From contig JAQVUX010000001.1 in NCBI GenBank assembly GCA_028699255.1, forward strand, positions 60,084 to 124,083: a DNA stretch of 64,000 bases, given 5' to 3'. The notes beneath the pieces were generated by a model. It saw only the letters and a program-made list of their open reading frames with translations, did no database searches and was not told the origin of the DNA. The DNA is from Candidatus Omnitrophota bacterium (GTDB lineage Bacteria > Omnitrophota > Gorgyraeia > 2-01-FULL-45-10). Shown here piece after piece: positions 13,810 through 41,872 of the stretch. A program made the position numbers and the translations under genes. Each line of letters opens with the position of its first letter. The first letter of the stretch is position 1.

Positions 13810-13810
13810 T

Positions 13811-14638
13811 ATGGATGCGATACGGTTATACCTGAAGGACATAAAGAAACTGCCGCTCCTTACTGCCGAGGAAGAGATAACTCTCGCCAATAAGATAAAG
13901 AGAGGGGACAAAGCCGCCCGGGCCAAGATGATACAATCCAACCTGCGGCTTGTCATCAATATCGCCAAGAAGTATTCACACCTCGGCGTGTCGATGCTCG
14001 ACCTGATCGAAGAAGGCAATATGGGGCTCATGAAGGCGGTCGAGAAGTTCAACCCCAAAAAGGGCTACAGATTCTCGACCTACGCGGCCTGGTGGATCCG
14101 CCAGTATATTTCACGGGCCATCGCGAATCAGGGCAAGACTGTGCGCATGCCGGTTTATATAATCGAACTTCTGATGCGTTTCAAAAAGATACAGGATCAT
14201 CTGACTAATTCCTTAAAAAGAAAACCGCGCCTTAATGAGATCGCGAAGAAGATGGGCCTTCCTATGAAGCGCGCCAAACAGCTCCACAAGATGGTATCCG
14301 GCACGTCGAGCCTTAACGCGCCGGTAGGCGAAGAGGGATCTACAGAGTTTCTTGATCTGATCGAAGATGAGAATATGGTCTCCGCGGTTGACGAGCTGTC
14401 GAACTTCCTGACACAGGAGAGGATAAATCTCCTTCTCGAGAAGATGTCGAAGAGAGAGCAAAAGATACTCTCCCTCCGGTTCGGGCTTAAAGACGGAGTT
14501 TCTCACACTCTGCGCGATACCGCGAAACACTTCGGTATTACGCGCGAACGGGTGCGGCAGATCGAGTCGGCCGCGATGCGCAAGATGCGCGAGATGATGC
14601 TTCAGCAGGAGCGCGAGGCCGTCCTGAAACGCGGGTGA
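13811..14638 (+). CDS. RNA polymerase sigma factor, sigma-70 family (regions 1.2-4, 275 aa; RpoD/RpoS-like group)
   Basis: The region 2 signature is [40 protein letters not shown], and a region 4 HTH is [19 protein letters not shown]. The product is short for a group-1 RpoD because it lacks region 1.1 and the non-conserved region. Confidence 0.85.
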
Positions 14639-14652
14639 GCGAAAGGGGTTAC

Positions 14653-15180
14653 TCGATGAACGAGCTTAAGTCAGCGATCCGTGACATCCCGGGATTTCCG
14701 AAAGAAGGCGTTATATTTAAAGACATAACCACCCTTCTTAAAGATAAAGAAAAGTTTCGACAGACTATCGATCTCTTTGCGGAAAAATTGAAAGGTAAAA
14801 AGATCGATGCCGTTGTCAGCATCGAAGCCCGGGGTTTTATCTTCGGTGCCGCCCTTGCCTATAAACTCGGTGCCGGGATTATCCCGGTAAGAAAAAAGGG
14901 GAAACTACCGTATAAAACCTATTCAGTTACCTACCAACTAGAATATGGCAATGATACTCTCGAGATACATCAGGATGCGTTTAAAAAAGGTGATAGCGTA
15001 CTGATAATCGACGATCTGCTCGCCACAGGCGGTACCTGTAAAGCCGTTATAGGGCTTGTCGAGAAGATGGGCGGCAAGATCGCCGGCATAGCTTTCCTCA
15101 TAGAACTGACAGCGTTAAAGGGGCGCGAGAAGTTCAAAGGCTACGATATCATAACTCTCATCCAGGACGAATATTGTTAA
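14653..15180 (+). CDS. apt: adenine phosphoribosyltransferase
   Basis: The PRPP-binding motif [13 protein letters not shown] and the [12 protein letters not shown] box are present. The ORF track begins at 14635 on an alternative start, but the ATG at 14653 is more likely. Confidence 0.88.
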
Positions 15181-15223
15181 TCGACCAACCTCTCCGAATT
15201 AAATAAAATTTTATGTTTTCGAT

Positions 15224-15252
15224 TTGACGCTTAATGATTATTCAGGTATACT
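15224..15252 (+). promoter_or_regulatory. sigma-70-type promoter, TTGACG-17-TATACT, upstream of the FadL-like outer-membrane protein gene
   Basis: Both hexamers are read directly with 17-nt spacing, in AT-rich intergenic DNA about 55 nt upstream of the ATG at 15308. Confidence 0.55.
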
Positions 15253-15307
15253 TATGCAAAACTAAAGTTAAATAGTGAAGGCTATTTAAAGAAAGGACGT
15301 CAAGAAA

Positions 15308-16564
15308 ATGGCTGTACAGAAAATGCGGAAAAGTTTTGCGGCTATACTTATATTATTTGCGGTTTGTTTGATTTTGAGTACGCCTGCTTATGCCACAAAC
15401 GGAATTCGGGAGCTTGGATTTAGTTCCCGAGATTCGGCCATGGCTGGCGCTACTACGGCTTCACCGGAAGACACCTCCTGTCTTGTGCGTAACCCCGCTG
15501 GACTTGTGTGGTTAGGAAACAGGATCGACTTGAACTATCAAAATATATTCCCTCATGATGTCACAATGCGCACCGACGGTCCTGCCGGAGGCCTTGCTAA
15601 TCGCGGCTTATCCCAAAAGAGTAATATAGATTATTTACCAGGAGGCAATGCAGGCGTAAGTTACCGTATCCCGGGAACAGATAAATATCCTATATCGGTA
15701 GGTTGCGGAGTTTTCACAATGTCTGGCGTGGCATTGAATTTCCCCTCATCGCGGATTTTAAGCGCCCTGACCGGCGATTATGACAAAATGATGGACTTGA
15801 GAAGCATGCGCATCGCGCCTGGTATAGCGGTTGCATTTAACGATAAGTTTTCTTTCGGCGCGACCGGCAATATAGGGTTGCAGGGATTGCGAACAAATAT
15901 GGCGACATCAACTTTTAATGGAGCGCAATATCCGGAAACTGCCGGAGCCGGGGATTGGGATTTCGCGCCGGGTGCGGGGTTTACGGTCGGCCTCCTGTAT
16001 AAATTCAACGAGATGCTAAATGTTGGCGCTTCATACGAAAGCCATGGATGGTTCGGCTATCATCATAAGTACAAGGACGCTCTGCCGTTCATAGATGAGC
16101 CTCCGATAATAAACGTTGGATTGTCATTTAAACCTACAAAAAATGTCGAGCTTACCTATGATACACGGTATATCAATTGGACGAACGTGAAGACTGCGGA
16201 AAGGTCGCCGATAGAAGGCGGCTTCGGCTGGAAGGACCAATGGGTTTTCGCCGTAGGCGGTGAATATACCTATAAAGAGAAACTTAAACTACGTCTCGGT
16301 TATAATTACGGTAAATCGCCTATCCGATCGAAAGTTGTATTCGCAAACGCGCTTTTGTCCGCCGCAACCATGGAACATCATGTTACTACGGGTTGCTCTT
16401 ATCTTTTTACGAAAAACTTGTCATGCGACTTAACGTGGGAACATCATTTTATGGGCGTTATGGCAGATGATGGCGCGGGGGACACATATAGTATTAATGG
16501 TTCAGGTACGAAAATAACCGCCGCCGCGGATATCATAAGCATAGGATTAGGATATAAGTTTTAG
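15308..16564 (+). CDS. outer membrane transport protein, FadL/TodX (OMPP1) family beta-barrel
   Basis: It has a signal peptide (AYA/TNG), the family N-terminal box (SAMAGATTASPEDTSCLVRNPAGL) and a C-terminal GYKF ending in Phe. This OM-barrel gene is one reason to think the organism is diderm. Confidence 0.75.
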   Translation: MAVQKMRKSFAAILILFAVCLILSTPAYATNGIRELGFSSRDSAMAGATTASPEDTSCLVRNPAGLVWLGNRIDLNYQNIFPHDVTMRTDGPAGGLANRGLSQKSNIDYLPGGNAGVSYRIPGTDKYPISVGCGVFTMSGVALNFPSSRILSALTGDYDKMMDLRSMRIAPGIAVAFNDKFSFGATGNIGLQGLRTNMATSTFNGAQYPETAGAGDWDFAPGAGFTVGLLYKFNEMLNVGASYESHGWFGYHHKYKDALPFIDEPPIINVGLSFKPTKNVELTYDTRYINWTNVKTAERSPIEGGFGWKDQWVFAVGGEYTYKEKLKLRLGYNYGKSPIRSKVVFANALLSAATMEHHVTTGCSYLFTKNLSCDLTWEHHFMGVMADDGAGDTYSINGSGTKITAAADIISIGLGYKF

Positions 16565-16587
16565 CAGGCGTAAAGTTTTATTAAAAA

Positions 16588-16619
16588 AACACCCGCAATT
16601 AAACGCGGGTGTTTTTTTA
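16588..16619. terminator. bidirectional rho-independent terminator (A7 - CACCCGC loop GCGGGTG - T7)
   Basis: A perfect 7-bp GC-rich stem is flanked by an A-run upstream and a T-run downstream. It sits between the fadL-like stop and the 3' end of the minus-strand tRNA. Confidence 0.75.
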
Positions 16620-16696
16620 TGGCGCCCCTGGCCCGAGTTGAACGGGCGACACCAGGTTTAGGAAACCTGTGCTCTATCCATCTGAGCTACAGGGGC
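16620..16696 (-). tRNA. tRNA-Arg (anticodon CCT), 77 nt, with encoded CCA
   Basis: I folded it manually. It has a 7-bp acceptor stem (GCCCCTG/CAGGGGC), a D-arm GCTC-AGATGGATA-GAGC, an anticodon stem CAGGT/ACCTG with loop TTCCTAA, a T-arm GCCCG-TTCAACT-CGGGC, and discriminator G followed by CCA. Confidence 0.85.
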
Positions 16697-16748
16697 ACTG
16701 AATTAAATTGAGCTACTCTATTACTGCACTGGATGCTCGCTACGCTCG

Positions 16749-16771
16749 CTATCCATCTGAGCTACAGGGGC
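16749..16771 (-). repeat. 23-nt direct duplicate of the 5' end (acceptor plus D-arm) of the adjacent tRNA-Arg; a tRNA gene fragment
   Basis: The string ctatccatctgagctacaggggc is present at 16674-16696 (inside the tRNA) and again at 16749-16771. A further mini-fragment, gagctac, lies at about 16713. Confidence 0.8.
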
Positions 16772-16849
16772 GTAATGAAAAGTGAAGAGATTATAACAAG
16801 AAAGAAAAATTCTTGCAATGAAAACTTGTTATATGTAATAATATAATCC

Positions 16850-17506
16850 ATGATCGATCTTCACACACATACGTTATTTTCTGATGGCGAATTATTGCCG
16901 AGTGAACTGGTCCGGCGTGCCGAGGTAAAGGGTTATACGGCTATCGCCTTGACAGACCATGTCGATTCATCCAATATCGATTTTGTTCTGCCCCGTATCG
17001 TCAAGGTTTGTAAGGTTTTAAACCGCTTCTGGAAGATACGCGCAATTCCTGGAGTTGAGATAACGCACGTGCCTGTTCAGGAGATAGGGGGGCTTGTGCG
17101 CTTCGCCAGAAAAAATGGGGCCAAGGTAGTGATCGTTCACGGAGAAACCATAGCAGAGCCCGTAATACCCGGAACGAATAGGGCCGCGATCGAGGCGGGA
17201 TGCGACATACTGGCGCACCCGGGACTGATCACTCAAAAGGATGTTGAACTTGCCGCGAAGCGCGGGGTATGCCTGGAAATAACTACACGCAAAACTCATT
17301 GCAGAACAAATAGGCGCCTGTTCAATTTGGCAAAAAAGTCCGGTACGAGTTTGGTTCTTAACAACGATGCTCATAACGATTCTGATCAGGTTACGGAGGC
17401 GCAAGCTAAGCGTATTTTAATAGCCATTGGAATGTCGCAACATGATATACAACAGGTATTTATGAATTCACAGGATATAGTGAAAAGAGTGGTTAGGAAT
17501 AAATAG
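16850..17506 (+). CDS. PHP-domain metal-dependent phosphoesterase (histidinol-phosphatase-like family)
   Basis: The N-terminal MIDLHTHTLFSDG and an ALTDH box are typical of PHP-family phosphoesterases. The product is 218 aa. Confidence 0.7.
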   Translation: MIDLHTHTLFSDGELLPSELVRRAEVKGYTAIALTDHVDSSNIDFVLPRIVKVCKVLNRFWKIRAIPGVEITHVPVQEIGGLVRFARKNGAKVVIVHGETIAEPVIPGTNRAAIEAGCDILAHPGLITQKDVELAAKRGVCLEITTRKTHCRTNRRLFNLAKKSGTSLVLNNDAHNDSDQVTEAQAKRILIAIGMSQHDIQQVFMNSQDIVKRVVRNK

Positions 17507-17516
17507 TCAATTGCAC

Positions 17517-17544
17517 TTGACAAATATCTGTGCTGTGGTATACT
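17517..17544 (+). promoter_or_regulatory. sigma-70-type promoter, TTGACA-16-TATACT, about 220 nt upstream of the porin gene
   Basis: It is a near-consensus promoter. It is followed by a 220-nt AT-rich leader with two AGGAGG-like motifs before the ATG at 17765. Confidence 0.55.
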
Positions 17545-17764
17545 TTTTTAATAAAAAGTTAGTTGCGCCTATAACATCATAGATAACTTAAATCTTGGCA
17601 AAGGAGGAGGTGGTGAATTACTAAGCTGTAGGTTATCAAAACGTGATGATATAGATATAGTAATGATACATATATAGCGGGTCGAACAACTTGATAAACA
17701 TTGTGATAGAACGGCCCAAAATTTAAAATATATTTGTTCTGACAAATCCTTAAAAGGAGGAAGC

Positions 17765-19204
17765 ATGAAATTTTTAAGATTTCTTTGCGTTCTCGCGTTA
17801 GCGCTTTGCGTAACAGCAAACGTGTACGCCGAAACACAGAGCGTGAAGGTAAGCGGTGATCTCACCATGAGAGGTATTTACAGGAACGACTACAGCATGA
17901 TCAGCCAGGTTGAGAAATCGGCTTCTATTGATGGAACCGATAAGAGCTGGGCGATGACCGTTGCCGCAGTTGAGGTAGACGCTGATCTTACCGATAACGT
18001 CACTACCGTAATCCGCTTGCTGAACCAGAGAGACTGGAATGTTGCCTCTTCGGTAACGAGCACTACCACTACGGCGAATGAAGACGAGTTTGACGTAATG
18101 GTCGATCTAGCTTACGTGCAGTTGAAGAACTTCATCTATTCACCGCTCACGTTGACGATCGGCCGTCAGAACCTATGGTTCGGCCGTGGCTTTATCATCG
18201 GCGCTAATCAGCAGAACCCCGGTTCTGCCACTGCGACCGATTCGACGTTTGTTCCCGGCAATTTGTCAGCGCCGGAATATACCGCTATCAATTCATTTGA
18301 TGCGGTGAAAGCGGTATTGGATTACGACCCATGGACGATCACGGGCGTATATGCAATGATCGATGAAGGTTCGGTTTCTGTCCGTGATAACATTAACCTG
18401 TGGGGCGTTAACGTCGGCTATAAGTTCAATAAAATGAACGGTGAAGCCGAAGGTTATTGGTTCTATAAGACCGATCGCGGCACACTTATACCGAACAAGG
18501 ATCTTAAGGCAAACAGCAATGATGTCTACACGATAGGCGCAAGAGGAAGTTTCGATCCTATCAGCTGGGTAACGCTTGCCGGCGAAGGTGCTTGGCAGGG
18601 GGGTCAGTATATCGGCAACATTAACCAGGTTAATTCCAGAGCCCGCTCCGCGTTTGCTATGGATTTCAGCGGAGAGGTCAGGTATTTCACCGATAAATTC
18701 GCGTGGAAGCCGAAATTTGGCGTAGAGTATATTTATTATTCGGGCGATCCTAGTTCCGATAATACGCCGGAGCTTGCTGGTGGTCTTTATCGTGGTTGGG
18801 ATTCGATGTATCGCGGCAAGTTCGATTCCGCTATTCGTGAATTCGTAGGTAAGTTCTACGCGAGCACGAGATACCCGGTGAGAACGAACTACACGCAGGC
18901 AACTGCGGATGATTCGCGCACCAATCAGAGCCAGGTTATTTTCCTCGGTAGCATACAGCCGATGGATAGCCTGACGATAAAAGGTAACTACAACCTGTTC
19001 TGGAACCTGGAACAGTATGATCAAGCTGTTGACAAGAGCCAGGGCTTTGTCGGCCAGGAAATCGACTTACAGGCCAACTGGGATTACACAGAAGATGTCA
19101 GCTTCGGCTTACTCGCGGGATGGTTTATACCCGGCGATGTTTATTATGATGGTAAGTCCGCCGTAGCGACTGATCTCGTTGGGTCAGTGAAGGTAAGCTT
19201 CTAA
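17765..19204 (+). CDS. putative outer-membrane beta-barrel porin (479 aa, signal peptide, C-terminal Phe)
   Basis: The signal peptide is MKFLRFLCVLALALCVTANVYA/ET. The body shows alternating hydrophobic beta-strand periodicity and is rich in aromatic, Gly and Asn residues, with a terminal ...VKVSF. No specific family could be assigned by eye. Confidence 0.6.
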   Translation: MKFLRFLCVLALALCVTANVYAETQSVKVSGDLTMRGIYRNDYSMISQVEKSASIDGTDKSWAMTVAAVEVDADLTDNVTTVIRLLNQRDWNVASSVTSTTTTANEDEFDVMVDLAYVQLKNFIYSPLTLTIGRQNLWFGRGFIIGANQQNPGSATATDSTFVPGNLSAPEYTAINSFDAVKAVLDYDPWTITGVYAMIDEGSVSVRDNINLWGVNVGYKFNKMNGEAEGYWFYKTDRGTLIPNKDLKANSNDVYTIGARGSFDPISWVTLAGEGAWQGGQYIGNINQVNSRARSAFAMDFSGEVRYFTDKFAWKPKFGVEYIYYSGDPSSDNTPELAGGLYRGWDSMYRGKFDSAIREFVGKFYASTRYPVRTNYTQATADDSRTNQSQVIFLGSIQPMDSLTIKGNYNLFWNLEQYDQAVDKSQGFVGQEIDLQANWDYTEDVSFGLLAGWFIPGDVYYDGKSAVATDLVGSVKVSF

Positions 19205-19220
19205 GTAACACGATAGTAAA

Positions 19221-19256
19221 AAAGCCCCGCTCTTATATAAGAGCGGGGCTTTTTTG
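19221..19256 (+). terminator. rho-independent terminator (AGCCCCGCTCTT-atata-AGAGCGGGGCT followed by T5)
   Basis: A perfect 11-12 bp stem and a T-tract follow immediately after the porin stop codon. Confidence 0.8.
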
Positions 19257-19295
19257 TTGACTTTTTACCGGCGTCAAAATACAATACTACGATAT

Positions 19296-20063
19296 ATGAG
19301 ATATCGGCATTCTAAGAGAGTAGTTATTGGCTGGCTTGCCTTTCTGGCCTTGGCTATTGCGCTATTTTTTATAATATTTATAGGGCGCCAGCGCGGCGCG
19401 GTAAAACCGCAGGCCGGATTTGGGTGTGAGATAATCAAGAAATTTTCGTTTTCAGATAGCGCCTCATTGAAGGAATGGGAAGAAAAGGTATTTAAAAATA
19501 AAGTTGCTTATCGGATAGAGAAAGACGGCGAGCTATCGTATGTAAGGGCGGTAAGTGAAAACGCGGCGTCGGCGTTATACTACCGTAAAAATATCGACGC
19601 GAAAAATAGGCGGCCCGTTATATTCTGGAAGTGGCGTGTTGAGAAATTTCCTGTCAAATCTGCCCCCGAGAGTCTTGAGACCGAAAAAGTGGACGACTTC
19701 GCGGCCAGGATTTACGTTATATTCCCGGCACTCTTTATAACCAACTCAAAGGTTCTGGAGTATGTATGGTCGGAGTCTTTACCTGTCGGAACGACCGGCA
19801 CCAGCCCGTATTCCGGTAATATAAAACTTATAGTTCTTCAGCAAGGTTTGGATAAAGATAAGAAATGGTTTTCCGAGGAGAGAGATATATATTCCGACTA
19901 TGTAAAACTTTTTGGCCGCCCTCCGGAATATAATGTGGGCGCCATAGCTTTTATGACCAATACGGAACATACCGGGAGTACCGCGGATGCCATGTACGAT
20001 GATGTCGGAATAGGATATCTCGCGGCAACCGAAACAAAAGGAGGCGGTAAGCGTGAGAACTAA
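19296..20063 (+). CDS. conserved hypothetical membrane-anchored protein, possibly DUF3047 family
   Basis: An N-terminal TM (VVIGWLAFLALAIALFFIIFIG) is followed by a soluble domain of about 200 aa. The ORF track start at 19254 lies inside the terminator, so the ATG at 19296 is preferred, downstream of a TTGACT-17-TACAAT promoter at 19256-19284. The family assignment is tentative. Confidence 0.5.
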   Translation: MRYRHSKRVVIGWLAFLALAIALFFIIFIGRQRGAVKPQAGFGCEIIKKFSFSDSASLKEWEEKVFKNKVAYRIEKDGELSYVRAVSENAASALYYRKNIDAKNRRPVIFWKWRVEKFPVKSAPESLETEKVDDFAARIYVIFPALFITNSKVLEYVWSESLPVGTTGTSPYSGNIKLIVLQQGLDKDKKWFSEERDIYSDYVKLFGRPPEYNVGAIAFMTNTEHTGSTADAMYDDVGIGYLAATETKGGGKREN

Positions 20064-20490
20064 ATTTTTGAGGACTAAATATTTGACGGGCAGTCGCATA
20101 CAGCTCCACTACCTTACGCTTTTGATGGTGTCTATAATAGTCCCGCTCGTGTTTTCCGCCGCATGCCTGTATTATCTTATTTTTAAAATAATGGCGGAAC
20201 AGATTGGTATACCGGAGTATATAGCGCTCAATCTATTCCCGGTAATACAAAAGATCAATATGATTTTGATCATTGGTGTGCCGCCGCTGTTTCTTGTCCT
20301 GGTTCTGTGGGGCGTGGTTTTGTCTCATCGCTTCGCAGGCCCGATCGAACGGCTCGAGAAAGAGATCAAGAGGATCGCGACTCATCATGATTACAAGGCG
20401 AGAGTGCACATAAGAAAAGGCGACGATGTCAAACCGATAGCGGATGCCGTAAACGTATTACTTGAGAGCGTGGAGAAAAAACAGAAATGA
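20053..20490 (+). CDS. small membrane protein with 2 TM helices and a HAMP-like linker domain (145 aa)
   Basis: Two hydrophobic helices are followed by LSHRFAGPIERLEKEIKRIA, a HAMP amphipathic pattern. There is no output domain. Confidence 0.5.
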   Translation: MRTKFLRTKYLTGSRIQLHYLTLLMVSIIVPLVFSAACLYYLIFKIMAEQIGIPEYIALNLFPVIQKINMILIIGVPPLFLVLVLWGVVLSHRFAGPIERLEKEIKRIATHHDYKARVHIRKGDDVKPIADAVNVLLESVEKKQK

Positions 20491-21287
20491 ACGATATAAG
20501 TCCGCTTGCCCAGATAAGTAAATCGGCGCATATTGCCGACGGTGTGTCCGTAGGACCATTTGCGATAATCGAAGATGGTGTCCAGATTTCATCCGGAGTT
20601 AAGATATGGGCTCATGCCTATATATGCAAGGATACGGTGATTGGCGAAGGCACCGAGGTGCATATGGGGGCAGTTCTCGGACATCTGCCTCAAGACCTGG
20701 GTTTTGATAAGAGCAGGAAGACTCGTGTAGTGGTAGGAAAAAACTGTGTTATTCGTGAATACGCTACTGTGCACAGGAGCACGAAAGAAGAGGCCCCCAC
20801 TTCCATCGGCGATGGTTGTTACCTTATGGCGGTTTCGCACCTGGGCCATGATTGCCACCTTGGGAACAATGTAATTGTCGCGAATGGCGCTCTTCTGGCA
20901 GGGCATGTTACGGTTGGAGACGGAGCTTTTATATCGGGCAATGTCGTTATACATCAATTTTGCAGAATAGGCGCGCTGGCCATGATAGGAGGGTTCACGG
21001 GGATAAACAAGGACGTGCCGCCTTATATGCTAGTCAGGGGGCCGTCCGTCGTGAGATCTGTTAATCTCGTGGGGCTCAGAAGAGCGAAATTCCCGCGTGA
21101 GCTGATACGAGATATTAAAGAAGCGTTTAAAGAATTATATCTATCTAATTTGAATACCGTGCAGGCATTGGAAAATATAAAGAAGCTAAACAAAACAAAA
21201 GAGATGAACTATCTTATCGAGTTTATTCAATCCTCAAAGCGCGGTATATGCAAGGCCAAAGATAGCGATGAGGAATTCTTCAGTTAG
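20487..21287 (+). CDS. lpxA: acyl-ACP--UDP-N-acetylglucosamine O-acyltransferase LpxA
   Basis: Left-handed beta-helix hexapeptide repeats are present throughout, together with the MAVSHLGHDCHLGNNVIVANGALLAGHV box and a C-terminal helical domain. The product is 266 aa. Confidence 0.88.
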   Translation: MNDISPLAQISKSAHIADGVSVGPFAIIEDGVQISSGVKIWAHAYICKDTVIGEGTEVHMGAVLGHLPQDLGFDKSRKTRVVVGKNCVIREYATVHRSTKEEAPTSIGDGCYLMAVSHLGHDCHLGNNVIVANGALLAGHVTVGDGAFISGNVVIHQFCRIGALAMIGGFTGINKDVPPYMLVRGPSVVRSVNLVGLRRAKFPRELIRDIKEAFKELYLSNLNTVQALENIKKLNKTKEMNYLIEFIQSSKRGICKAKDSDEEFFS

Positions 21288-21954
21288 CATCCCACCCGGA
21301 ATGTTTATCAGGATATACAATAAGCTATATAAATTTTATGGCCCGCAGGGTTGGTGGCCCGCACGGAGCCGCTTTGAGGTTATTGTCGGAGCCATTCTTA
21401 CTCAGAATACTGCGTGGACCAACGTGGAGCGTGCTATACGAAACCTTAAGGGGCAGGGTTATCTGACGTCTCCGCGAAAAATATGCGATCTCGACGCGCC
21501 TGAACTTTCGCGCATTATACGCCCTGCCGGTTATCATAATGTTAAAGCCCAACGGCTTAAAAATTTTACGAATTTTTTACTAAATCGTTACGCTTGCAGG
21601 CTTGACAGATTGTCCCACATTCCGACCGACGGATTGCGCGGGGAATTATTAGGTGTAAATGGTATCGGGCCGGAAACGTGCGATTCCATACTGCTGTACG
21701 CGTTTAAAAGGCCTGTTTTTGTCGTGGATGCCTATACAAAAAGGATATTTTCACGCCATGGTTTTTTCAGCCAGGAATCCACGTACGAATTTGTGCAGGA
21801 TTTATTTATGAAAAATCTTCCGACGGAGAGTATCTTATTTAACGAATATCACGCATTAATCGTGCGTCTTGCCAAAGAATACTGCAGAAAGAGTCCGCGT
21901 TGCGGCGATTGTCCTCTCAAAATTTCTTGCAAAAGGCAAGGCGTGATAATATAA
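21268..21954 (+). CDS. HhH-GPD superfamily DNA glycosylase (endonuclease III-like, with a C-terminal Fe-S cluster loop)
   Basis: The helix-hairpin-helix is LLGVNGIGPETCDSILLYAF, followed by the catalytic Asp region VVDAY and a cysteine cluster CRKSPRCGDCPLKISC. The likely true start is the ATG near 21301. Confidence 0.75.
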   Translation: MRNSSVSIPPGMFIRIYNKLYKFYGPQGWWPARSRFEVIVGAILTQNTAWTNVERAIRNLKGQGYLTSPRKICDLDAPELSRIIRPAGYHNVKAQRLKNFTNFLLNRYACRLDRLSHIPTDGLRGELLGVNGIGPETCDSILLYAFKRPVFVVDAYTKRIFSRHGFFSQESTYEFVQDLFMKNLPTESILFNEYHALIVRLAKEYCRKSPRCGDCPLKISCKRQGVII

Positions 21955-21964
21955 TATGAGCCAT

Positions 21965-22007
21965 TAGCCCCGCCAGATTTGTTAACGCAAATCCAAGCGG
22001 CAGGGCG
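21965..22007. repeat. single degenerate copy of the TAGCCCCGCC...GGC(A/G)GGG inverted-repeat motif also found in the 56-bp tandem repeat at 3850-4007
   Basis: The sequence tagccccgcc-N24-ggcagggcg is read directly, about 40 nt upstream of the Lys-rich protein gene at 22044. Confidence 0.5.
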
Positions 22008-22043
22008 ATTTGCCTGAATCAAATAACAGCAAATCGGAGGTGC

Positions 22044-22424
22044 GTGATGCTTAAGAAAAAGAAGAAGCCGGCAAAGAAGGCTAAGGTTGTAAAAAAAACA
22101 GCCAAGCCCGTAAAAAAGCGTTCTAAAGCTAAGGCCCGAACAATAAAGAAAAAGCTTCCGATTGAGAACATGATCAAGGTTGGCGAGATTACGCATTATT
22201 TTCCGCACGTTAAAGCCGCCGCGCTTCTTATCCTGAAGGACAGTATCAAGATCGGCGATGAGATATATATAAAAGGGCATACCAGTGATTTTAAGGAGAA
22301 GATCGTATCTATACAGCTTGATCGTGCTCCAATAAAAGAAGGCAGGAAGGGGCAGGAGATAGGGCTTTTAGTAAAGAAGCGTGTTAGGATAGGGGATAGC
22401 GTTTATAAAGTCGGTAACAAATAA
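22044..22424 (+). CDS. small basic protein: N-terminal Lys/Ala-rich (histone H1-like KKAKK repeats) tail plus a C-terminal EF-Tu domain-2-like beta-barrel
   Basis: The N-terminus reads MMLKKKKKPAKKAKVVKKTAKPVKKRSKAKARTIKKK. The C-terminal part (about 85 aa) resembles translation-factor beta-barrel domain II. An SD-like GGAGG lies upstream of the ATG. Confidence 0.55.
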   Translation: MMLKKKKKPAKKAKVVKKTAKPVKKRSKAKARTIKKKLPIENMIKVGEITHYFPHVKAAALLILKDSIKIGDEIYIKGHTSDFKEKIVSIQLDRAPIKEGRKGQEIGLLVKKRVRIGDSVYKVGNK

Positions 22425-34201: not shown

Positions 34202-35518
34202 TTACTGTGTTCTGCGGTCTAAGAGGAAGGTACTTTTCTGCACCTGTTTCACGCGGCTTTTTATGTTTACAGCGATGTTGGTGAGCTCGCCGTAGCTTGA
34301 AATGGCTCGTAATTGGTTGGTTACCCCTGCCAAAGATATCGTCATTATGGGAAACTTCATAAGCTCTCCCCTTCGGCTCTTCTCTACTATGAACCCTATG
34401 TCGAGATCCTCTTTATTATAAAAAGCCCTGACCTTGGTATCGAATTGATGGATTATCTCCTGCGCGATGGCATCTGCTCTTGCCGGACTTGTTATCATGA
34501 AAAAGTCGTCGCCGCCCTCATGTCCGACAAAATCCCCGGGAGCTCCTTTTAGTTTCACAGCATTCTCGATGACATCGCATGTAAACTTTATTATATCGTC
34601 GCCTTTCGCTATGCCGTAGTGGTCGTTATAGGCTTTAAAATTATCCAGATCTATATGCACAGCTACAAATTTTTCGTTAATTTTGATCCTTCGCTCCACC
34701 TCTTCACGTATTATCGTATTACCCGGTAATTTTGTGAGCGGATTGACGTTCTCCGCCCGCTCCTTCATCTTTTTCAAGGCTATCGTCATTAGGTTAAAAG
34801 TATCCCCCAGCTCCTGTATCTCGTCCCGTGTATTTATCTTTACATTTAGGTCGAGGTTTCCGGAAGATATCTCTTTAGTAGCTTTATTGAGCAATCTTAT
34901 AGGCCAGACGATCGTACGAACCAGCATGAATCCCAGGAATAGATTGCCGATTATTACGGCGATTGCTGTTAATGCGATCGGTATTAAAATATCGGCAACA
35001 GCTTTGCTTATATTGGCTATAGAAAAAGAAAGCTTAGCGATATATTTCGGCGAGTTACCAAGCCATATCGGTATATAAATATCTATCATCTTCGTTTTTC
35101 CGTTGACGGTAGAATAGAACCAGTCATTACCCTCCGCTGTTTTTGACAAGCGCAAATATGTATTTATATCTTCTTTAGTTTCTCCGAACTCTTTTGCGAT
35201 AGGATCGTTTGTAGCTATGGCATTTCCGTCCATCGACATTATGGATATCCTGTCCGCTATCCCCTCTTTTGAAAAAGATTCAACGGCGGCTTCGAATATA
35301 GCCGGTACGGTTTCGTCAGTATCGATGCCTTTTAATAGCATCTCGAGAGTGGTTTTGACTATGATGGTACCTACGCGGGCACGATATTTATTATAGGAAT
35401 TCAGGCGGTCGAGATGATTATTGAGTTGTATAGAAGTAAAAATAGAAATGAATAAGAGGGATAGCCCCGCTATCAGAAGAGTTACTCTAACCTGCAGTCG
35501 GAACTTGTGCATATGCAA
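34202..35518 (-). CDS. membrane sensor diguanylate-cyclase-family protein (TM - periplasmic sensor - TM - HAMP - GGDEF domain) with a variant GGDDF active-site motif
   Basis: The GGDEF domain is recognisable (HIDLDNFKAYNDHYGIAKGDD...GDFVGHEGGDDFFMI). Two TM segments flank a periplasmic domain of about 150 aa, and a HAMP-like linker is present (LLNKATKEISSGNLD). Confidence 0.75.
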   Translation of the reverse strand: MHMHKFRLQVRVTLLIAGLSLLFISIFTSIQLNNHLDRLNSYNKYRARVGTIIVKTTLEMLLKGIDTDETVPAIFEAAVESFSKEGIADRISIMSMDGNAIATNDPIAKEFGETKEDINTYLRLSKTAEGNDWFYSTVNGKTKMIDIYIPIWLGNSPKYIAKLSFSIANISKAVADILIPIALTAIAVIIGNLFLGFMLVRTIVWPIRLLNKATKEISSGNLDLNVKINTRDEIQELGDTFNLMTIALKKMKERAENVNPLTKLPGNTIIREEVERRIKINEKFVAVHIDLDNFKAYNDHYGIAKGDDIIKFTCDVIENAVKLKGAPGDFVGHEGGDDFFMITSPARADAIAQEIIHQFDTKVRAFYNKEDLDIGFIVEKSRRGELMKFPIMTISLAGVTNQLRAISSYGELTNIAVNIKSRVKQVQKSTFLLDRRTQ

Positions 35519-35626: not shown

Positions 35627-36856
35627 ATGAAAAAAGTCATAGCATTGATACTGGGCGGCGGGCAGGGCAAGCGGCTCTTCCCCTTAACAATGTACCGCTC
35701 CAAACCTGCGGTTCCGATAGGCGGTAAGTATCGCCTTATCGACATACCGATAAGCAATTGCCTGCATTCCGGCTTAAAAGATATATATGTCCTCACGCAG
35801 TTCAACTCCGAGTCGTTGAATAATCATATTAATAATACTTATAGATTCGACTATTTCTCCCGCGCGTTTGTGCGTATATTGGCGGCCGAGCAGACGGTGG
35901 ATAATACGAGCTGGTTCCAGGGTACCGCCGACGCTGTGAGACGCAATCTTTCCCATCTTGATCTAAAAGGCGATGAACAGATACTCATACTCTCCGGCGA
36001 TCATCTTTACAATATGGATTACAGGGAGCTTATTGATTATCATATTTCCCGCAAGGCGGACGTTACCGTATCGGCTATACCTGTATCCGAAAAAGAGGTC
36101 GGTGAATTCGGAATATTGAAGATGTCGAAAGAAGGCAGGATAGCAAGTTTTAAGGAAAAACCGAAGAGCCGCGCGGAGCTTAAAGGATATAAGATAAGTA
36201 GTGGTGTCGACGGCAATTATCTCGCGTCTATGGGTGTATATGTCTTCAATTCCAGGACGCTTACGGAGGCGTTGTCAGGCAATGACGCGGATTTCGGTAA
36301 AGAGGTTATCCCTCATTCAATAAAACGATCGCGTAGTTTCGGTTATACTTTCAGCGGCTACTGGAAGGATGTCGGAACGATACAGTCGTTCTATGAAGTC
36401 AATATGGGTATGTCCGCGTCGAAACAGCAATTTTCGTTCTTCTACGATGGCTCATTATTTACCAGGCCGAGGTTTTTACCATCCGCCAGGATATTTAATT
36501 CGGATATTAAGAATTCGCTGATCACGGAAGGATCGGTTATATCCGACGCAGATATAACTAATTCGATAATAGGATTAAGGTCCATAATAGGTAAAAATTG
36601 CCGTATCTCGCGGACTGTAATGATGGGCGCCGATTATTATGAAGCTAAAGACTCAAAGGAAGTGATATCCGTCGGTATCGGGGATGGGGCTTTTATAGAC
36701 AAGGCCATCGTAGACAAGAATGCCCGCATAGGCAAAAATGTAACAATAAAAAATATGCGTAATATAGATAATTTCGACGGAGAAAATTATTTTATACGTG
36801 ATGGTATAGTGATAGTGCCGAAGGGTGCGATAATAAAACCCGGCACTAAGATATAG
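35627..36856 (+). CDS. glgC: glucose-1-phosphate adenylyltransferase (ADP-glucose pyrophosphorylase)
   Basis: The N-terminal nucleotidyltransferase motif is ILGGGQGKRLFPLTMYRSKPAVPIGGKYRLIDIPISNC, followed by a C-terminal left-handed beta-helix. The product is 409 aa. Confidence 0.9.
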   Translation: MKKVIALILGGGQGKRLFPLTMYRSKPAVPIGGKYRLIDIPISNCLHSGLKDIYVLTQFNSESLNNHINNTYRFDYFSRAFVRILAAEQTVDNTSWFQGTADAVRRNLSHLDLKGDEQILILSGDHLYNMDYRELIDYHISRKADVTVSAIPVSEKEVGEFGILKMSKEGRIASFKEKPKSRAELKGYKISSGVDGNYLASMGVYVFNSRTLTEALSGNDADFGKEVIPHSIKRSRSFGYTFSGYWKDVGTIQSFYEVNMGMSASKQQFSFFYDGSLFTRPRFLPSARIFNSDIKNSLITEGSVISDADITNSIIGLRSIIGKNCRISRTVMMGADYYEAKDSKEVISVGIGDGAFIDKAIVDKNARIGKNVTIKNMRNIDNFDGENYFIRDGIVIVPKGAIIKPGTKI

Positions 36857-37769
36857 CGGTTTTCCCGTAAAAAGACCCCTGGCATGTACCTCTTTTTGTA
36901 AGCACTTGCTTGATCCTGTTGATAGTTCCGGTCTTGTTCATGGCCCACGCAGGAGCAACGTGGGTTTTACTGTCTCCTTCCCCTGTCAATCGCTGTATTA
37001 TGATATCCGGATCGAGGCGCTCGATAAAGTCGCAGGCAAGCTCAACATATTCCTCCCGCGTCATTAAAGATATCTCCCCTTGAGCGTATAGTTTTTCCAT
37101 GGGACTGTTTTTCAGCACGTGCAAAAGGTGCATCTTTATTCCATCTATTTTTAAAGCACTCAAACTTTTCGCCGTTTTCATCATATCTTCCCTGCTTTCA
37201 CCGGGAAGCCCCAGTATCACATGAACACAGACCGGGATATGAAATTTCTGCGTAAGTTTTAAAGCCGACAGGAAATCCTCAAAAGTATGCCCTCTATTTA
37301 TGGCGTTGAGCGTACGATTGTGTATAGATTGTAATCCCAACTCGATCCACATCTCGTATCGATCGGCGTATGAGGAGATGAGTTTCAATTTTGCATCATC
37401 CAGCGTATCCGGGCGGGTTCCTATGGATATGCCGACGACATCGTCGATGCCGAGAGTCTGATCGTAGCGCTCCTTAAGCGCCTCCGGCGAGTCGTAGGTA
37501 TTAGTGAATGCCTGGAAATACGCGATAAATCTCGACGCATTTTTAGCCTGCCGCAGATATTTAATCCGTGAAATTAACTGCTCCCTGATAGAATTTTTCG
37601 GATCTGTGTAAGAGGATCTTGCGCCAACGTCACTGCAATACAAACAGCCGCTGGTACTTATAGTGCCGTCGCGATTTGGACATGAGAAGCCCCCGTCGAG
37701 GCCTATCCTGTATACCTTGCATCCGTATTTTTCGCGTAAGACGGAATTGTAGTCGTTGTAGAGTTTCAT
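36846..37769 (-). CDS. radical SAM protein, TIGR01212 family (YhcC/Elp3-like)
   Basis: A CxxxxxxxxxxCxxC cluster ([18 protein letters not shown]) lies close to the N-terminus, which is characteristic of TIGR01212. The product is 307 aa. Confidence 0.8.
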
Positions 37770-39547
37770 TTTTTCCGTAGATAGACCATGAGTATGGATA
37801 TCGCCGCTGGCGTTACTCCGGAAATCCTGGAGGCTTGAGCCAGGTTTATCGGCCGTATTTTTTCAAGCTTCTCTTTTATTTCGGCCGACAGCCCGTTTAT
37901 CTTTTTATAATCTATGCCCGCCGGGATTTTTATCCTTTCGATCTTTTTGAGACGCGATATTTCCGCCCCTTGCCGTCGGATATAACCGGCGTATTTTACC
38001 TCTATTTCTACCGATTTTATTTCGTCCGCAGAAATGCGTTCTCCGGCTGTTTCCGGCACGATTTCATTGTATGATGTTCCCGGCCGCCTCAAAATCTTTT
38101 CGAGGTTATTTTCTTTTAGTCGTTTCACCTCGTCATTTATATGCCTGTTTTTTTCGGACACTCGTTTATACGATTCGTCGTCGATCAAGCCTATTGCATG
38201 GCCTATCGGCGTAAGGCGCGTATCGGCATTGTCTTCACGCAGTAATAATCGGTACTCTACGCGTGAAGTGAACATGCGATACGGCTCATTCGTCCCTTTG
38301 GTAACCAGGTCATCTATCAATACGCCTATATATGCCTGAGAGCGGCTTAAGACAAGAGCGTCGGAGCCTTTTATCTTCAGGGCGGCGTTTATACCCGCCA
38401 TGAGTCCCAGGGCCGCGGCTTCTTCGTAACCTGTCGTGCCATTTATCTGTCCTGCCAGATACAGGCCGGGGACGGTTTTAGCCTCCAGCGTCGGGTATAG
38501 CTGGGTCGGATAAATGAAATCATACTCTATGCCGTAGCCGGGCTTTGTTATCCTGGCTTTTTCCAGGCCTTCGATGGAAAAAAGGATCTTCTCCTGTACA
38601 TCGACAGGCAGGCTTGTCGATATGCCGTTGGGGTAATATTCCGTTGTGCCGAGCCCTTCGGGTTCCAGGAATATGTGGTGCCGGGTGCGTTCCGGAAAAC
38701 GGAAGACCTTGTCCTCTATCGACGGGCAGTAGCGTACGCCGGTTCCTTTGATAACACCTGTGAATAGCGGTGAACGATCGAGGTTAGACCTTATAATATC
38801 GTGAGTCTTTTCATTTGTGTATGTTATGTAGCACGGGAGTTGCTCTCGCGCTATGTGTTTTGTTCTGGATGAAAAAGGCAGGATGTTAAGATCGCCGTTT
38901 TGCGATGAAAGCTTTTTAAAGTCTATCGTCCTGCCGTCTAAGCGGGCACAGGTTCCGGTCTTAAGCCTGCCCATTTCAAGCCCTAAATCCCGCAGGGAAT
39001 CAGAGAGATTGCAAGCGCTCTTCTCCCCCATTCGCCCTCCCGGATGGTGCTCGAGCCCTATGTGTATGAGGCCATTGAGGAACGTTCCGGTGGTTATTAT
39101 AAGCGCTTTTGTAAGATATGTCTCGTTAATGGATGTGCGAACGCCCGATATGGTGCCGCGCTCCGTAATTACCTGAACCGCCTCCCCTTCTTTTATATCA
39201 AGGTTGTTCTGCCCCTCCACTATAGCTTTCATGCATGCCTGGTATGCGTGGCGGTCGATTTGCGCCCTCGAAGATTGTACGGCAGGCCCTTTACTGGTAT
39301 TGAGCAGGCGGAATTGCAACATGGAAGCATCTGTCGCCATTCCCATGTATCCACCCAAGGCGTCGACCTCTCGAACCAACTGCCCTTTTGCCAGGCCGCC
39401 TATGGCGGGATTGCAGGATATGGCGCCGATAGTATCCGTGTTCATGGTTATTAGCAATGTCTTGCACCCTAATCTCGCGGATGCCAAGGACGCTTCGCAT
39501 CCCGCGTGTCCGGCGCCAATCACTATAACGTCGTAAACAATTTTCAT
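37766..39547 (-). CDS. mnmG: tRNA uridine 5-carboxymethylaminomethyl modification enzyme MnmG (GidA)
   Basis: The FAD-binding N-terminus is [14 protein letters not shown]; GidA-family motifs are present throughout, with a C-terminal helical domain. The ORF track start is 39601, but the ATG giving MKIVYDVIV at 39547 is preferred. Confidence 0.9.
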
Positions 39548-39779
39548 TGCCGTGCCCTTGCTTTTTAAATAATCGTCAGGTATACTTGTATTGGATGACA
39601 ACAGCCTAGAGTGACCCGTTCTCGGGCCTTAGGTACTCGATACCTGCAAAGTGCTGTTGCCATCCCTTTTTTTGTGTAAAAAACCGGCAACAACACTTTT
39701 TATAGAAGTTATTTCTTATAGATACAACTTTCTGCGGGGTGTCGGCAACGAAGCCTTTTACTGCAGTAATCATACCCTT

Positions 39780-40991
39780 CTAAAGATTTATTATAGAATC
39801 GAAAGTACCAAAAGCGTTTTGAACACGTTCCGCATTCCGGGAATCGAGCACCCATTGGCCGTCGACTAAGAATTTATACTTGTGTTTACCCGGGACGAGC
39901 CCCATGCGCTTTTCCCATTTGCCATCCTGGACACTGGATAAGCGATGTTCTTCCGTTACTTTCCAGTCGTTAAAGTCTCCCACTATGTATATATCTTTGG
40001 CGCCGGGTGCGTCGATGGCGAAGATCACTTCTTTTGCCAGGGATTCTACCGCATCCATAAGAGACGGCGAATCCGCCGCCATCCTGCTTGACCGCCCATC
40101 TTCTTTGAACCGGTTGGTCCCCTGCGAAATGACCATTATCGCTTTTTCGGACTCTATGGCTTGTTTGGTTTCTTCGATCTTCTCTATCTCCAGAGCATTG
40201 GATGCCTCCGTTATTTCGCGTTCCTCATTATCACCTTTTAGTATTTCCTTTGAAAGGCTGATATGATCGGCCGCGCCGTTCGACTCCTTGTCGAACTGTA
40301 TTACGGAAACGCCTTTAGATGCGGCTTTCTTTAACGCGACATTAAGTCGTATCACCGTTTCCAGGAGTTGCTCTTTAAATAACGTGCGTATCTCATCGAG
40401 CATCGTTTGCGAATATTTTGTACGTTTGTCGAAAATAGTAGCCACCGCATTGACGCGCGGCGCATGGCCTATCTTAACTTTTATAAGTTCCAGCATACCG
40501 AGAAGTTTCGCGACCCCCATAAGAGAAAAAGCGCTCATGTCTATCGGCACCAAAACCAGATCGGCGGCTCTTAAGGCGTTGAATGTGAGAAATCCTAAGG
40601 ATGGCGGGCAATCGACTACGACATAATCGTAATCGAGCCGGCTTGAACGCAAGCTTTCGTGCAGTTTTGAAACAGCGTCTTCCTTGTCTTTTAATTCCTG
40701 TTCGATGGTGCTGAGGAGGATACTGGATGGTATAATATCGAGATTTACGGATACATTAAAAATGCAGTCCCGCAGGTTTCTGCGCCTATCGGCATTATCG
40801 GTAAGTATGCTGTAGATCGATTTGTCCGCAGTTTGATTGGCAACCCCGAGGCCATAAGTTGCGTGAGCTTGCGGATCGAGATCGATAAGAAGGATTTTTT
40901 TACCGGAAAGAGCAAGCGCGGCAGAGAGATTTATCGCTGTGGTAGTTTTTCCGCATCCGCCCTTTTGATTCGCTATCGATATCGTCTTCAT
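39780..40991 (-). CDS. ParA/MinD-family P-loop ATPase fused to a C-terminal AMPK-beta-type glycogen-binding domain (CBM48)
   Basis: The deviant Walker A (NQKGGCGKTTTAINLS) and ParA/Soj-like core span about 260 aa, followed by an acidic or coiled linker of about 60 aa. The C-terminal 85 aa (DIYIVGDFNDWKV...GKHKYKFLVDGQWVLDSRNAERVQNAFGTFDSII) closely matches the AMPK beta GBD (EVYLSGSFNNW...GEHQYKFFVDGQWTHDPSEPIVTSQLGTVNNII). The ORF track start is 41045; the ATG giving MKTISIANQKGG at 40991 is preferred. Confidence 0.8.
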   Translation of the reverse strand: MKTISIANQKGGCGKTTTAINLSAALALSGKKILLIDLDPQAHATYGLGVANQTADKSIYSILTDNADRRRNLRDCIFNVSVNLDIIPSSILLSTIEQELKDKEDAVSKLHESLRSSRLDYDYVVVDCPPSLGFLTFNALRAADLVLVPIDMSAFSLMGVAKLLGMLELIKVKIGHAPRVNAVATIFDKRTKYSQTMLDEIRTLFKEQLLETVIRLNVALKKAASKGVSVIQFDKESNGAADHISLSKEILKGDNEEREITEASNALEIEKIEETKQAIESEKAIMVISQGTNRFKEDGRSSRMAADSPSLMDAVESLAKEVIFAIDAPGAKDIYIVGDFNDWKVTEEHRLSSVQDGKWEKRMGLVPGKHKYKFLVDGQWVLDSRNAERVQNAFGTFDSIINL

Positions 40992-41056
40992 AGCCAATCT
41001 CCTTATATTTATCAAAAAGCCGTCATTTGTAATACTATATAACAAAATGTAAAAGA

Positions 41057-41872
41057 TTACAAATATTTTTTAGCAAACTTGACGCCATTTTTAAATATTA
41101 CGAGACCGTCGCCTTCTTCACCTTTTTTTCGTTTTACATTTAACCTGGTCCAATGCGGATCCTGAAAAATAGATATATGCCTTTCCGGATGCGGCATGAG
41201 GCCGAATATTCTGCCCGTCCTGTCGCAAATGCCCGCTATGTTATCGACCGAACCGTTTGGATTATCCGGATAGCCGCATTTTTTGCCATGAGCGTCGACA
41301 TATTCCAGCGCTATCAACCCCTCTTTTTTTAGAATGCCTAATATTTTTTTATTTGCCGGTATAAATTTTCCCTCGCCGTGGGCTACGGGTAAGTGAATTA
41401 CTTTTTCGATGCCGCCGGTCCATACGCACTTGTTCCTTTTCCCGCTCCCCGCCCCGTTTTTCAAATAAACCCATCGATCTTCGAATTTATTCGAATCATT
41501 CAGTGTTAATGTGGTTTCGATGGTGCAGAAGTCGCCGGAGAGGTTCGGTAAAAGCCCCGCTTTTACCAAAACCTGGAACCCGTTACAGATGCCGATTATT
41601 AATTTTCCATCTTCGATGAATTTCTGCAGGCTATCTTCGATCTTGAACTTTAATTCATTGGCGAGTATTTTGCCGCTAGCGATATCGTCCCCATAAGTAA
41701 ATCCACCCGGTATGGCCAGAATGTGATAATCGTTTATATCCTTACGCCGCGCGGTTAATTCGTTTATATGCACAAGCTCTGTTTCGGCCCCTGCCGTTTC
41801 GAACGCAAAGGCCGTCTCTTTATCGCAGTTTGTACCGGCTGTACGCAGGACTATTACCTTAGGTTTTCTCAT
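41057..41872 (-). CDS. purQ: phosphoribosylformylglycinamidine synthase subunit PurQ (glutamine amidotransferase, long form)
   Basis: The class I GATase Cys motif is GICNGFQVL, with a His/Glu region LMPHPERH. The product is 271 aa, and the gene overlaps the purL stop. Confidence 0.85.
   Translation of the reverse strand: MRKPKVIVLRTAGTNCDKETAFAFETAGAETELVHINELTARRKDINDYHILAIPGGFTYGDDIASGKILANELKFKIEDSLQKFIEDGKLIIGICNGFQVLVKAGLLPNLSGDFCTIETTLTLNDSNKFEDRWVYLKNGAGSGKRNKCVWTGGIEKVIHLPVAHGEGKFIPANKKILGILKKEGLIALEYVDAHGKKCGYPDNPNGSVDNIAGICDRTGRIFGLMPHPERHISIFQDPHWTRLNVKRKKGEEGDGLVIFKNGVKFAKKYL

Follow-up and report, generated by a model that had tools for sequence, protein, structure and literature searches.

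Does a parA-like gene beside mnmG (gidA) mark a remnant of the origin-proximal gidA-gidB-soj-spo0J cluster, or is it a distinct ParA that came to adjoin mnmG? The question is raised by a 64,000-nucleotide (nt) stretch of contig JAQVUX010000001.1 from a Candidatus Omnitrophota bacterium, hereafter the window, in which all coordinates below are positions. Here, a 403-amino-acid (aa) protein joining a ParA-type ATPase to a carbohydrate-binding module (CBM), which we call ParA-CBM, is encoded at 39780..40991 on the minus strand, directly 5' of mnmG on the same strand. The initial annotation had proposed either that the chromosomal Soj was repurposed in place by gaining a CBM48 domain or that a ParA paralogue had been inserted next to mnmG. 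Its observations held: the two open reading frames (ORFs) were confirmed and lie 232 nt apart, the Pfam models AMPK1_CBM and CBM_48 both scored above their curated cutoffs, and Pfam confirmed the co-directional run of the carB C-half, purF, guaA, purSL, purQ, parA-CBM, mnmG and a radical SAM gene. Of its two readings, the second, taken as a distinct ParA that came to adjoin mnmG, fits the data. The best explanation overall, to which we assign a probability of roughly 55%, is a distinct ParA-CBM family whose member here was relocated, adjoins mnmG incidentally and may tether glycogen.

The ParA-CBM protein and its family

Pfam searches, sequence matches in the PDB, an AlphaFold2 model and Foldseek all bore on the ParA-CBM gene product, which divides into an ATPase domain (~residues 1-255; 40227-40991, minus strand), an E/K-rich predicted long helix with a disordered linker (~residues 256-317; 40041-40226, minus strand) and an AMPK-beta/CBM48-type beta-sandwich (~residues 318-403; 39783-40040, minus strand), followed by the stop codon (39780-39782, minus strand). 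Residues 1-250 matched AAA_31 (5e-55) and CbiA (4.5e-21), and the C-terminal region (~residues 338-418 of the long ORF) matched AMPK1_CBM (2.3e-11; 44.2 bits against a cutoff of 26.8) and CBM_48 (1.1e-5; 26.1 bits against 22.4). In the AlphaFold2 model (predicted local distance difference test, pLDDT, 79), the E/K-rich helix spans residues 238-293, residues 294-317 are disordered, and the beta-sandwich occupies residues 320-395.

The top Foldseek matches of this model were ParA/Soj proteins, with target-normalised template modelling (TM) scores of 0.84-0.90. Sequence searches of the PDB likewise matched the ATPase domain to ParA 8RAY (1e-48), Thermus thermophilus Soj (3e-38) and Helicobacter pylori Soj (5e-35), with weaker matches to McdA (1e-15) and MinD (~1e-13). 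The KGGxxK[ST] P-loop, Walker A' aspartates and Walker B motif of the ParA/MinD (SIMIBI) superfamily were all present. Among 75 family sequences, K10, K15, D37, D39 and D127 were invariant; R190, at the position of B. subtilis Soj R189, was kept in 74, and the basic residue K221 was K or R in 74. ParA-CBM is, as predicted from these residues, a Soj-type ATPase with an intact catalytic set and the conserved Soj DNA-binding arginine.

The C-terminal 100 residues aligned to the CBMs of AMPK beta1 and beta2 in the PDB sequence search (1.4e-8). In the structure of the AMPK beta1 CBM with cyclodextrin, W100 and W133 form the sugar platform, and K126 is also a sugar-site residue. The corresponding W343 and W380 of ParA-CBM were each kept in 74 of the 75 family sequences, K373 (at the K126 position) was K or R in 64, and the position of beta1 N150 was N or D in 73. 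The C-terminus of ParA-CBM is a predicted AMPK-beta-type glucan-binding site, intact and carried on a flexible or helical tether. Because ParA-CBM has neither a signal peptide nor a transmembrane segment, this module is placed in the cytoplasm.

Database searches revealed a 100% match between ParA-CBM and P0001, annotated as "AAA family ATPase" in a Candidatus Omnitrophica metagenome-assembled genome, and showed that AMPK1_CBM (PF16561) is present in all of the best 120 database matches (57-77% identity). Two-domain proteins of 340-700 aa made up most of the best 150 matches among 1.84 billion 50%-identity cluster representatives, and in our synteny sample, drawn from species-representative genomes and comprising 80 loci with a relative, 79 matched the query across both domains. 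The family occurs in Omnitrophota, Planctomycetota (Phycisphaerae, Tepidisphaerales and Sedimentisphaerales), Myxococcota, Desulfobacterota, Margulisiibacteriota and other phyla, shares the signatures KGGCGKT and DPQAHA, and carries no source annotation beyond "AAA family ATPase" or "chromosome partitioning protein". A few close homologues lack the CBM: P0256, which is annotated as partial and has a 421-aa member in the same cluster; P0226 and P0272, which are ParA family proteins of Omnitrophota (301-319 aa) at the family level of identity (48-51%); and three nameless proteins. None of the six was identifiable as a canonical Soj. ParA-CBM belongs, on its predicted architecture, to a large ParA family that spans several phyla, has no name so far and is fused to a glucan-binding module through a linker that is variable and helical or disordered. 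It is very probable that the gene belongs to this distinct family and that its position beside mnmG is incidental.

Among the best query matches were also P0121 (1812 aa) and P0129 (1436 aa), which carry 7-18 tandem copies of AMPK-beta-type CBMs, indicating that the same type of CBM is used repetitively elsewhere in metagenomic proteins.

Synteny, origin signals and locus layout

To place the gene in its genomic context, we compared the window with the 80 sampled loci and inspected eight close relatives (L001, L004, L082, L084, L086, L087, L088 and L089; 54-72% identity). In the sample, mnmG lay within 10 kb of the ParA-CBM gene in two loci only (L001 and L004, the two closest), and the adjacency was missing in the other 78. 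A neighbourhood of pur genes, ParA-CBM, mnmG and convergent glgC was common to all eight close relatives, so the pur-operon context, rightly called unusual for a ParA in the initial annotation, is a conserved one. In seven of the eight, mnmL directly follows mnmG, and glgC lies 2-5 kb from ParA-CBM in the window and in all eight.

The neighbourhood of parA and mnmG was confined to one clade in this comparison. In the close relatives, one or two genes stand between ParA-CBM and mnmG: a LOG-family gene in 8/8 and, in 5/8, an additional gene for a 135-150-aa membrane protein or response regulator. No LOG homologue was found by tblastn in the window, including the parA-mnmG spacer. Since the relatives have the LOG gene between the two and the 232-nt spacer of the window is without it, we attribute the direct adjacency to a recent local deletion; as a single event, it is not open to any chance statistic.

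The 37 more distant Omnitrophota loci hold ParA-CBM in another conserved block, with the order PHP protein, c11, Alginate_exp-type porin (c3), GH57 (c4), c1, ParA-CBM, c5 and c2. In this block, c1 is a 190-aa membrane protein, c5 a small membrane protein and c2 a Lys-rich small-barrel protein; GH57 is present in 24 of the 37 loci (Pfam 1e-60). The flanks of the block were recognised in the window at 11059..22424 on the plus strand by cluster synteny, tblastn and Pfam, with ppdK, sigma-70, apt and PHP protein genes, the c3 porin at 17765-19204 (plus strand) and c2 at 22044-22424 (plus strand). The GH57, c1, ParA-CBM and c5 segment is absent between these flanks at 11-22 kb, and searches of the window with hidden Markov models (HMMs) and motifs for GH57 (c4), c1, c12 (a relative of c1) and c5 were negative. 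Because the flanks have been kept and the middle segment is gone, we infer that, in the clade ancestor, the ParA-CBM gene was relocated to the distal end of the pur operon. The gene would thus have moved out of a block with a porin, GH57 and a membrane partner, and the genes separating it from mnmG would then have been deleted in the window's own lineage.

Against this background, we examined the idea that the locus is a relic of the origin cluster, in which the chromosomal Soj gained a CBM and stayed beside mnmG while rsmG and parB were lost. The protein itself lends it some support: the ATPase is of the Soj type, with ParA/Soj as its best PDB matches (1e-48 to 5e-35) and best folds, R190 is conserved, and identity to the Soj references is 36-40%. 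A small neighbor-joining (NJ) phylogeny is compatible both with nesting inside Soj and with a position as its sister group, and the 64-kb window showed no second ParA and no ParB. However, the three Soj references (two sequences entered by hand and one rebuilt from a PDB search alignment) are 50-58% identical to one another and only 32-47% identical to the family. The partner genes described below are not ParB. The family also occurs in Myxococcota, a phylum in which M. xanthus has an essential ParABS system.

Gene order argues in the same direction. In the canonical block of B. subtilis and Pseudomonas, gidA precedes soj. The window runs purQ, parA-CBM, mnmG, mnmL, which is reversed relative to gidA-gidB-soj-spo0J and departs from the canonical mnmG-rsmG-parA-parB order. 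As the initial annotation had stated, rsmG and parB are missing from the window: ParBc, GidB/RsmG and DnaA gave no Pfam match in window ORFs of at least 150 aa (excluding shadow ORFs that overlap the genes described here on the opposite strand), and tblastn of the window with hand-entered Spo0J and RsmG probe sequences gave no match. A parS search of the window that allowed up to 3 mismatches gave no site, and the 16 DnaA boxes, against 12.3 expected, were at chance level and unclustered. A replication origin near the locus was rejected on the missing parS sites, the chance-level DnaA boxes and the lack of dnaA in the window.

The GC skew of the window changes sign at ~32 kb, where its cumulative curve has its maximum, and it is here that plus-strand genes give way to minus-strand genes. 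In all parts of the window the coding strands are rich in purines, and plain GC and AT skew track gene orientation. Two observations identify the flip as a coding-strand effect: glgC, the lone plus-strand gene among the minus-strand genes, is skewed according to the strand that encodes it, and the plus-strand GC skew at third codon positions is at or above zero on both sides of the switch. A terminus-like reading of the ~32-kb maximum was ruled out on the same two grounds.

With its order reversed, no origin signal, an adjacency that is not conserved (and is interrupted in all eight close relatives) and a different ancestral context, the origin-cluster reading is unsupported, and descent from that cluster is highly improbable. 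The resemblance itself is ordinary and is explained by rearrangement. As a useful caution, gidA-parA adjacency alone is no marker of an origin.

At the gene level, ParA-CBM starts with an ATG at 40991, with the Shine-Dalgarno sequence AAGGAG 8 nt 5' of it. This ribosome-binding site is carried by the 66-nt purQ-parA spacer (40992..41062, minus strand; purQ stop codon at 41057-41059). A weak sigma-70-like site, TTGTAA-17-TATAGT, lies at 41062-41034, its first hexamer overlapping the end of purQ; it scored 9/12 in the promoter scan and showed no enrichment over shuffled sequence. The parA-mnmG spacer (39548..39779, minus strand) holds a hairpin with a 15-bp stem at ~39649-39699, and the whole spacer folds at -68.5 kcal/mol (z = -3.3). 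The hairpin is without a U-tract, and its stem sequence occurs only once in the window; a role in processing or attenuation, or a scar left by a deletion, could account for it. A remnant of the LOG gene in this spacer was considered and rejected, as tblastn gave no match and the hairpin alone is present. No Rfam element was found in the spacers, and one tRNA was the sole RNA match in the window.

Downstream, mnmG (37766..39547, minus strand; Pfam GIDA 5e-165; TIGR00136 857 bits against a cutoff of 525) has an alternative TTG start at 39601. Its stop overlaps by 4 nt the mnmL/ytqA-type radical SAM gene (36846..37769, minus strand; TIGR01212 373 bits against 180). NCBIfam describes MnmL/YtqA as a tRNA-modification enzyme, which makes mnmL a functional partner of mnmG and not of parA. 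Convergent with mnmL is glgC, for glucose-1-phosphate adenylyltransferase (35627..36856, plus strand; NF002772 547 bits against 537), the only glycogen-pathway gene in the window.

Upstream on the minus strand, Pfam identified purQ (41057-41872), a purS-purL fusion (41869-44730) with the PurS domain at the N-terminus of a 953-aa PurL, guaA (44770-46311), purF (46313-47722) and the C-half of carB (47719-49281). The fusion is kept in most relatives and is absent from L088, where PurL has 742 aa. The carB gene is split into halves ~8 kb apart (47719-49281 and 57197-58861), the N-half adjoining carA and the C-half, with its MGS domain, adjoining purF; between them are DUF520, dus, DUF1846 and a 1260-aa ORF (49389-53171, minus strand). 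The sole recognisable part of this ORF is a low-molecular-weight phosphotyrosine phosphatase domain at residues 167-287, and its remaining ~1100 residues are unannotated. At the gene-orientation switch point, a protein of 782 aa (31777-34125, minus strand) is rich in Ser, Thr, Tyr and Asn, has a hydrophobic segment at its N-terminus and gave no match in Pfam or NCBIfam. A HAMP-GGDEF protein (34202-35518, minus strand) has the active-site motif GGDDF instead of GG(D/E)EF, and its gene neighbours glgC in 5/8 close relatives.

Partner genes and possible functions

ParA/MinD ATPases organise chromosomes, plasmids, carboxysomes, chemoreceptor arrays, flagella and division sites. None of the papers returned by our literature searches connects a ParA/MinD ATPase with glycogen or a CBM, and the searches on Omnitrophota together with ParA or ParB found nothing relevant.

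A dedicated partner gene adjoins ParA-CBM in approximately 63 of the 80 loci, and ParB was found neither in the window nor in 85 related loci. Two types of partner were distinguished; KKLGRGLEDISHLFLS and MDKKDIYEHLAKIYLD are examples of partner peptides. In 45 Omnitrophota loci, c1 or its relative c12 (homologous by HMM search) lies directly upstream of ParA-CBM, often with a gap of 0-60 nt to the ParA start (examples are L021:9414-9989, L001:2489-3211 and L089:5287-5997). The encoded protein spans the membrane with one helix and also has an N-terminal peptide, a Lys-rich stretch and a C-terminal domain rich in beta structure. The peptide is conserved (DIYEHLAKIYLD in c1, "EQLADIYFS" in c12), and the partner motif across Omnitrophota reads "IYEHLAKIYL" or "LADIYFS". 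A CBM30 match in c12 was weak (1e-3) and below cutoff.

In about 18 loci outside Omnitrophota (L040, L045, L048, L055-L057, L060-L062, L065, L068, L070, L071, L073 and L077-L080), the downstream gene starts with a "[KR]..(G)RGL.[DE][IV]SH[LI]F[LF]S" peptide. These proteins, from Planctomycetota, Myxococcota and Desulfobacterota, are diverse (104-560 aa), and many have a degenerate CbiA/ParA-like P-loop body. ParB activates Soj through its LG(R/K)GL N-terminus; the "GRGL..ISHLFLS" peptide resembles this N-terminus, although the proteins that carry it are not ParB.

Glycogen metabolism is represented near the ParA-CBM gene in two settings that are independent of each other: 25 loci have GH57 within 10 kb, and glgC accompanies the gene in the window's clade. 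Taken with the two domains, this makes it a serious possibility, if still a tentative one, that glycogen granules are tethered to or positioned on the nucleoid in an ATP-dependent manner. In such a mechanism, the ATP-bound ParA-CBM dimer would bind nucleoid DNA non-specifically, as Soj does, and the two CBMs of the dimer would bind glycogen with avidity, by which granules would be tethered to, and spread along, the nucleoid. The short N-terminal peptide of the partner would trigger ATP hydrolysis and release, giving ParA-type dynamics. With more reserve, ParA-CBM and its peptide-bearing partner may constitute an unrecognised multi-phylum ParA-type system with the glycogen granule as its cargo. 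If so, polysaccharide storage granules would for the first time have a partition or positioning system of their own, and it would also be the first such system whose ATPase contains the cargo adaptor, a new design principle in which the cargo-binding domain is fused to the motor. The family offers a testable route to the long-open question of how storage polysaccharide granules are distributed and inherited in bacteria.

The same CBM evidence (the Pfam matches, the AMPK beta alignment and the residue conservation) and the nearby GH57 and glgC genes would also suit a scaffold or sensor of glycogen metabolism. There, the CBM would place an ATP-dependent dimerisation switch on glycogen particles with no transport along the nucleoid, and the protein would recruit or regulate GH57 and enzymes of the ADP-glucose pathway or report carbon status as AMPK beta does. 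A cargo-binding domain carried by the ATPase, in which ParA-CBM departs from classical ParA systems, and the position of the gene at the end of a purine-biosynthesis operon in the window's clade are in keeping with this role. We nevertheless regard it as unlikely: a purely granule-bound protein would have no need of the conserved DNA-binding arginine and basic patch, and the ParB-like N-terminal peptide of the partner is typical of ParA cycling systems.

The membrane-anchored partner raises a further alternative, a BcsQ-like positioning of an envelope or polysaccharide machine, in which the ATPase would localise a complex of the single-pass membrane partner and the Alginate_exp-type porin and the CBM-like domain would bind an exported glucan or a protein. 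In 37 Omnitrophota loci, c1 is bitopic in the membrane and ends in a beta-rich domain, its relative c12 gave the sub-cutoff CBM30 match noted above, the porin gene precedes the partner, and BcsQ is among the Pfam, NCBIfam and Foldseek matches. Identity to BcsQ in Foldseek was only 16-19%, however, as against 33-39% for Soj; the porin is one of many conserved but unrelated neighbours in a long block; outside Omnitrophota, the partners are soluble, with degenerate P-loop domains; and the CBM is placed in the cytoplasm, the protein having neither signal peptide nor transmembrane segment. This alternative therefore appears quite improbable.

Several observations also weigh against glycogen tethering by a distinct family, which remains our preferred explanation. 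The link to GH57 falls within a long syntenic block of related genomes and may be inherited gene order, and outside Omnitrophota no enrichment of glycogen genes was seen (two genes on either side at 33 loci, 119 proteins). To our knowledge, known ParA systems bind their cargo via the partner and not via the ATPase. The invariant Walker A cysteine of the family may in part be a product of ascertainment through the search pattern NQKGGCGK, and in an NJ tree with the three Soj references, Soj was monophyletic in 81/100 bootstraps and the ParA-CBM family in 25/100. Finally, HMM and motif searches revealed no recognisable partner nearby in the window or in five close relatives (L082-L088), while L089, L001 and L004 have retained c12. 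As neither partner type is nearby, the partner of the window genome would be encoded elsewhere or have been lost.

Comparison with known ParA/MinD and CBM systems

Among characterised systems, Soj/ParA references (1WCV/2BEK, 6IUB/8JMJ, 8RAY and B. subtilis Soj) are the best matches of ParA-CBM in both sequence and fold. The protein shares with them the deviant Walker A motif KGGxGKT with its signature lysine, Walker A', Walker B and the R189-equivalent arginine. It differs in its KGGCGKT and DPQAHA motifs (KGGVGKT and DPQGNA in Soj), in its 150-aa C-terminal linker and CBM, and in standing without an adjacent ParB, parS or rsmG. None of the NCBIfam ParA models reaches its cutoff with ParA-CBM.

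McdA/McdB offers the parallel of a ParA-type ATPase that serves a non-chromosomal cytoplasmic cargo and has a small dedicated partner gene alongside, features that are putative for ParA-CBM. ParA-CBM resembles McdA only remotely (1e-15, 22% identity), the Pfam ORF scans found no carboxysome genes in the window, and the presumed cargo-binding domain is on the ATPase itself and not on the partner. With MinD, an analogy may be drawn in which a C-terminal appendage gives avidity for a surface that depends on the ATP dimer, through two membrane-targeting helices in MinD and, putatively, two CBMs in ParA-CBM. However, ParA-CBM is ~25% identical to E. coli MinD (a hand-entered reference sequence), ends in a CBM instead of an amphipathic helix, and scored 50 bits against the cutoff of 213 of the MinD model TIGR01968; neither minC nor minE was found in the window.

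The C-terminal module finds its closest counterpart in the AMPK beta CBMs (1Z0M, 4Y0G and 2F15), with which it shares a predicted beta-sandwich and the beta1 residues W100, K126 and W133 as W343, K373 and W380. In the ParA-CBM family, L146 is replaced by F or Y and N150 appears as N or D, and the module is joined to a bacterial P-loop ATPase, not to a kinase scaffold. While ParA-CBM thus belongs neither to a ParABS locus nor to McdA or MinD, it is in its predicted working most like Soj or McdA-type systems.

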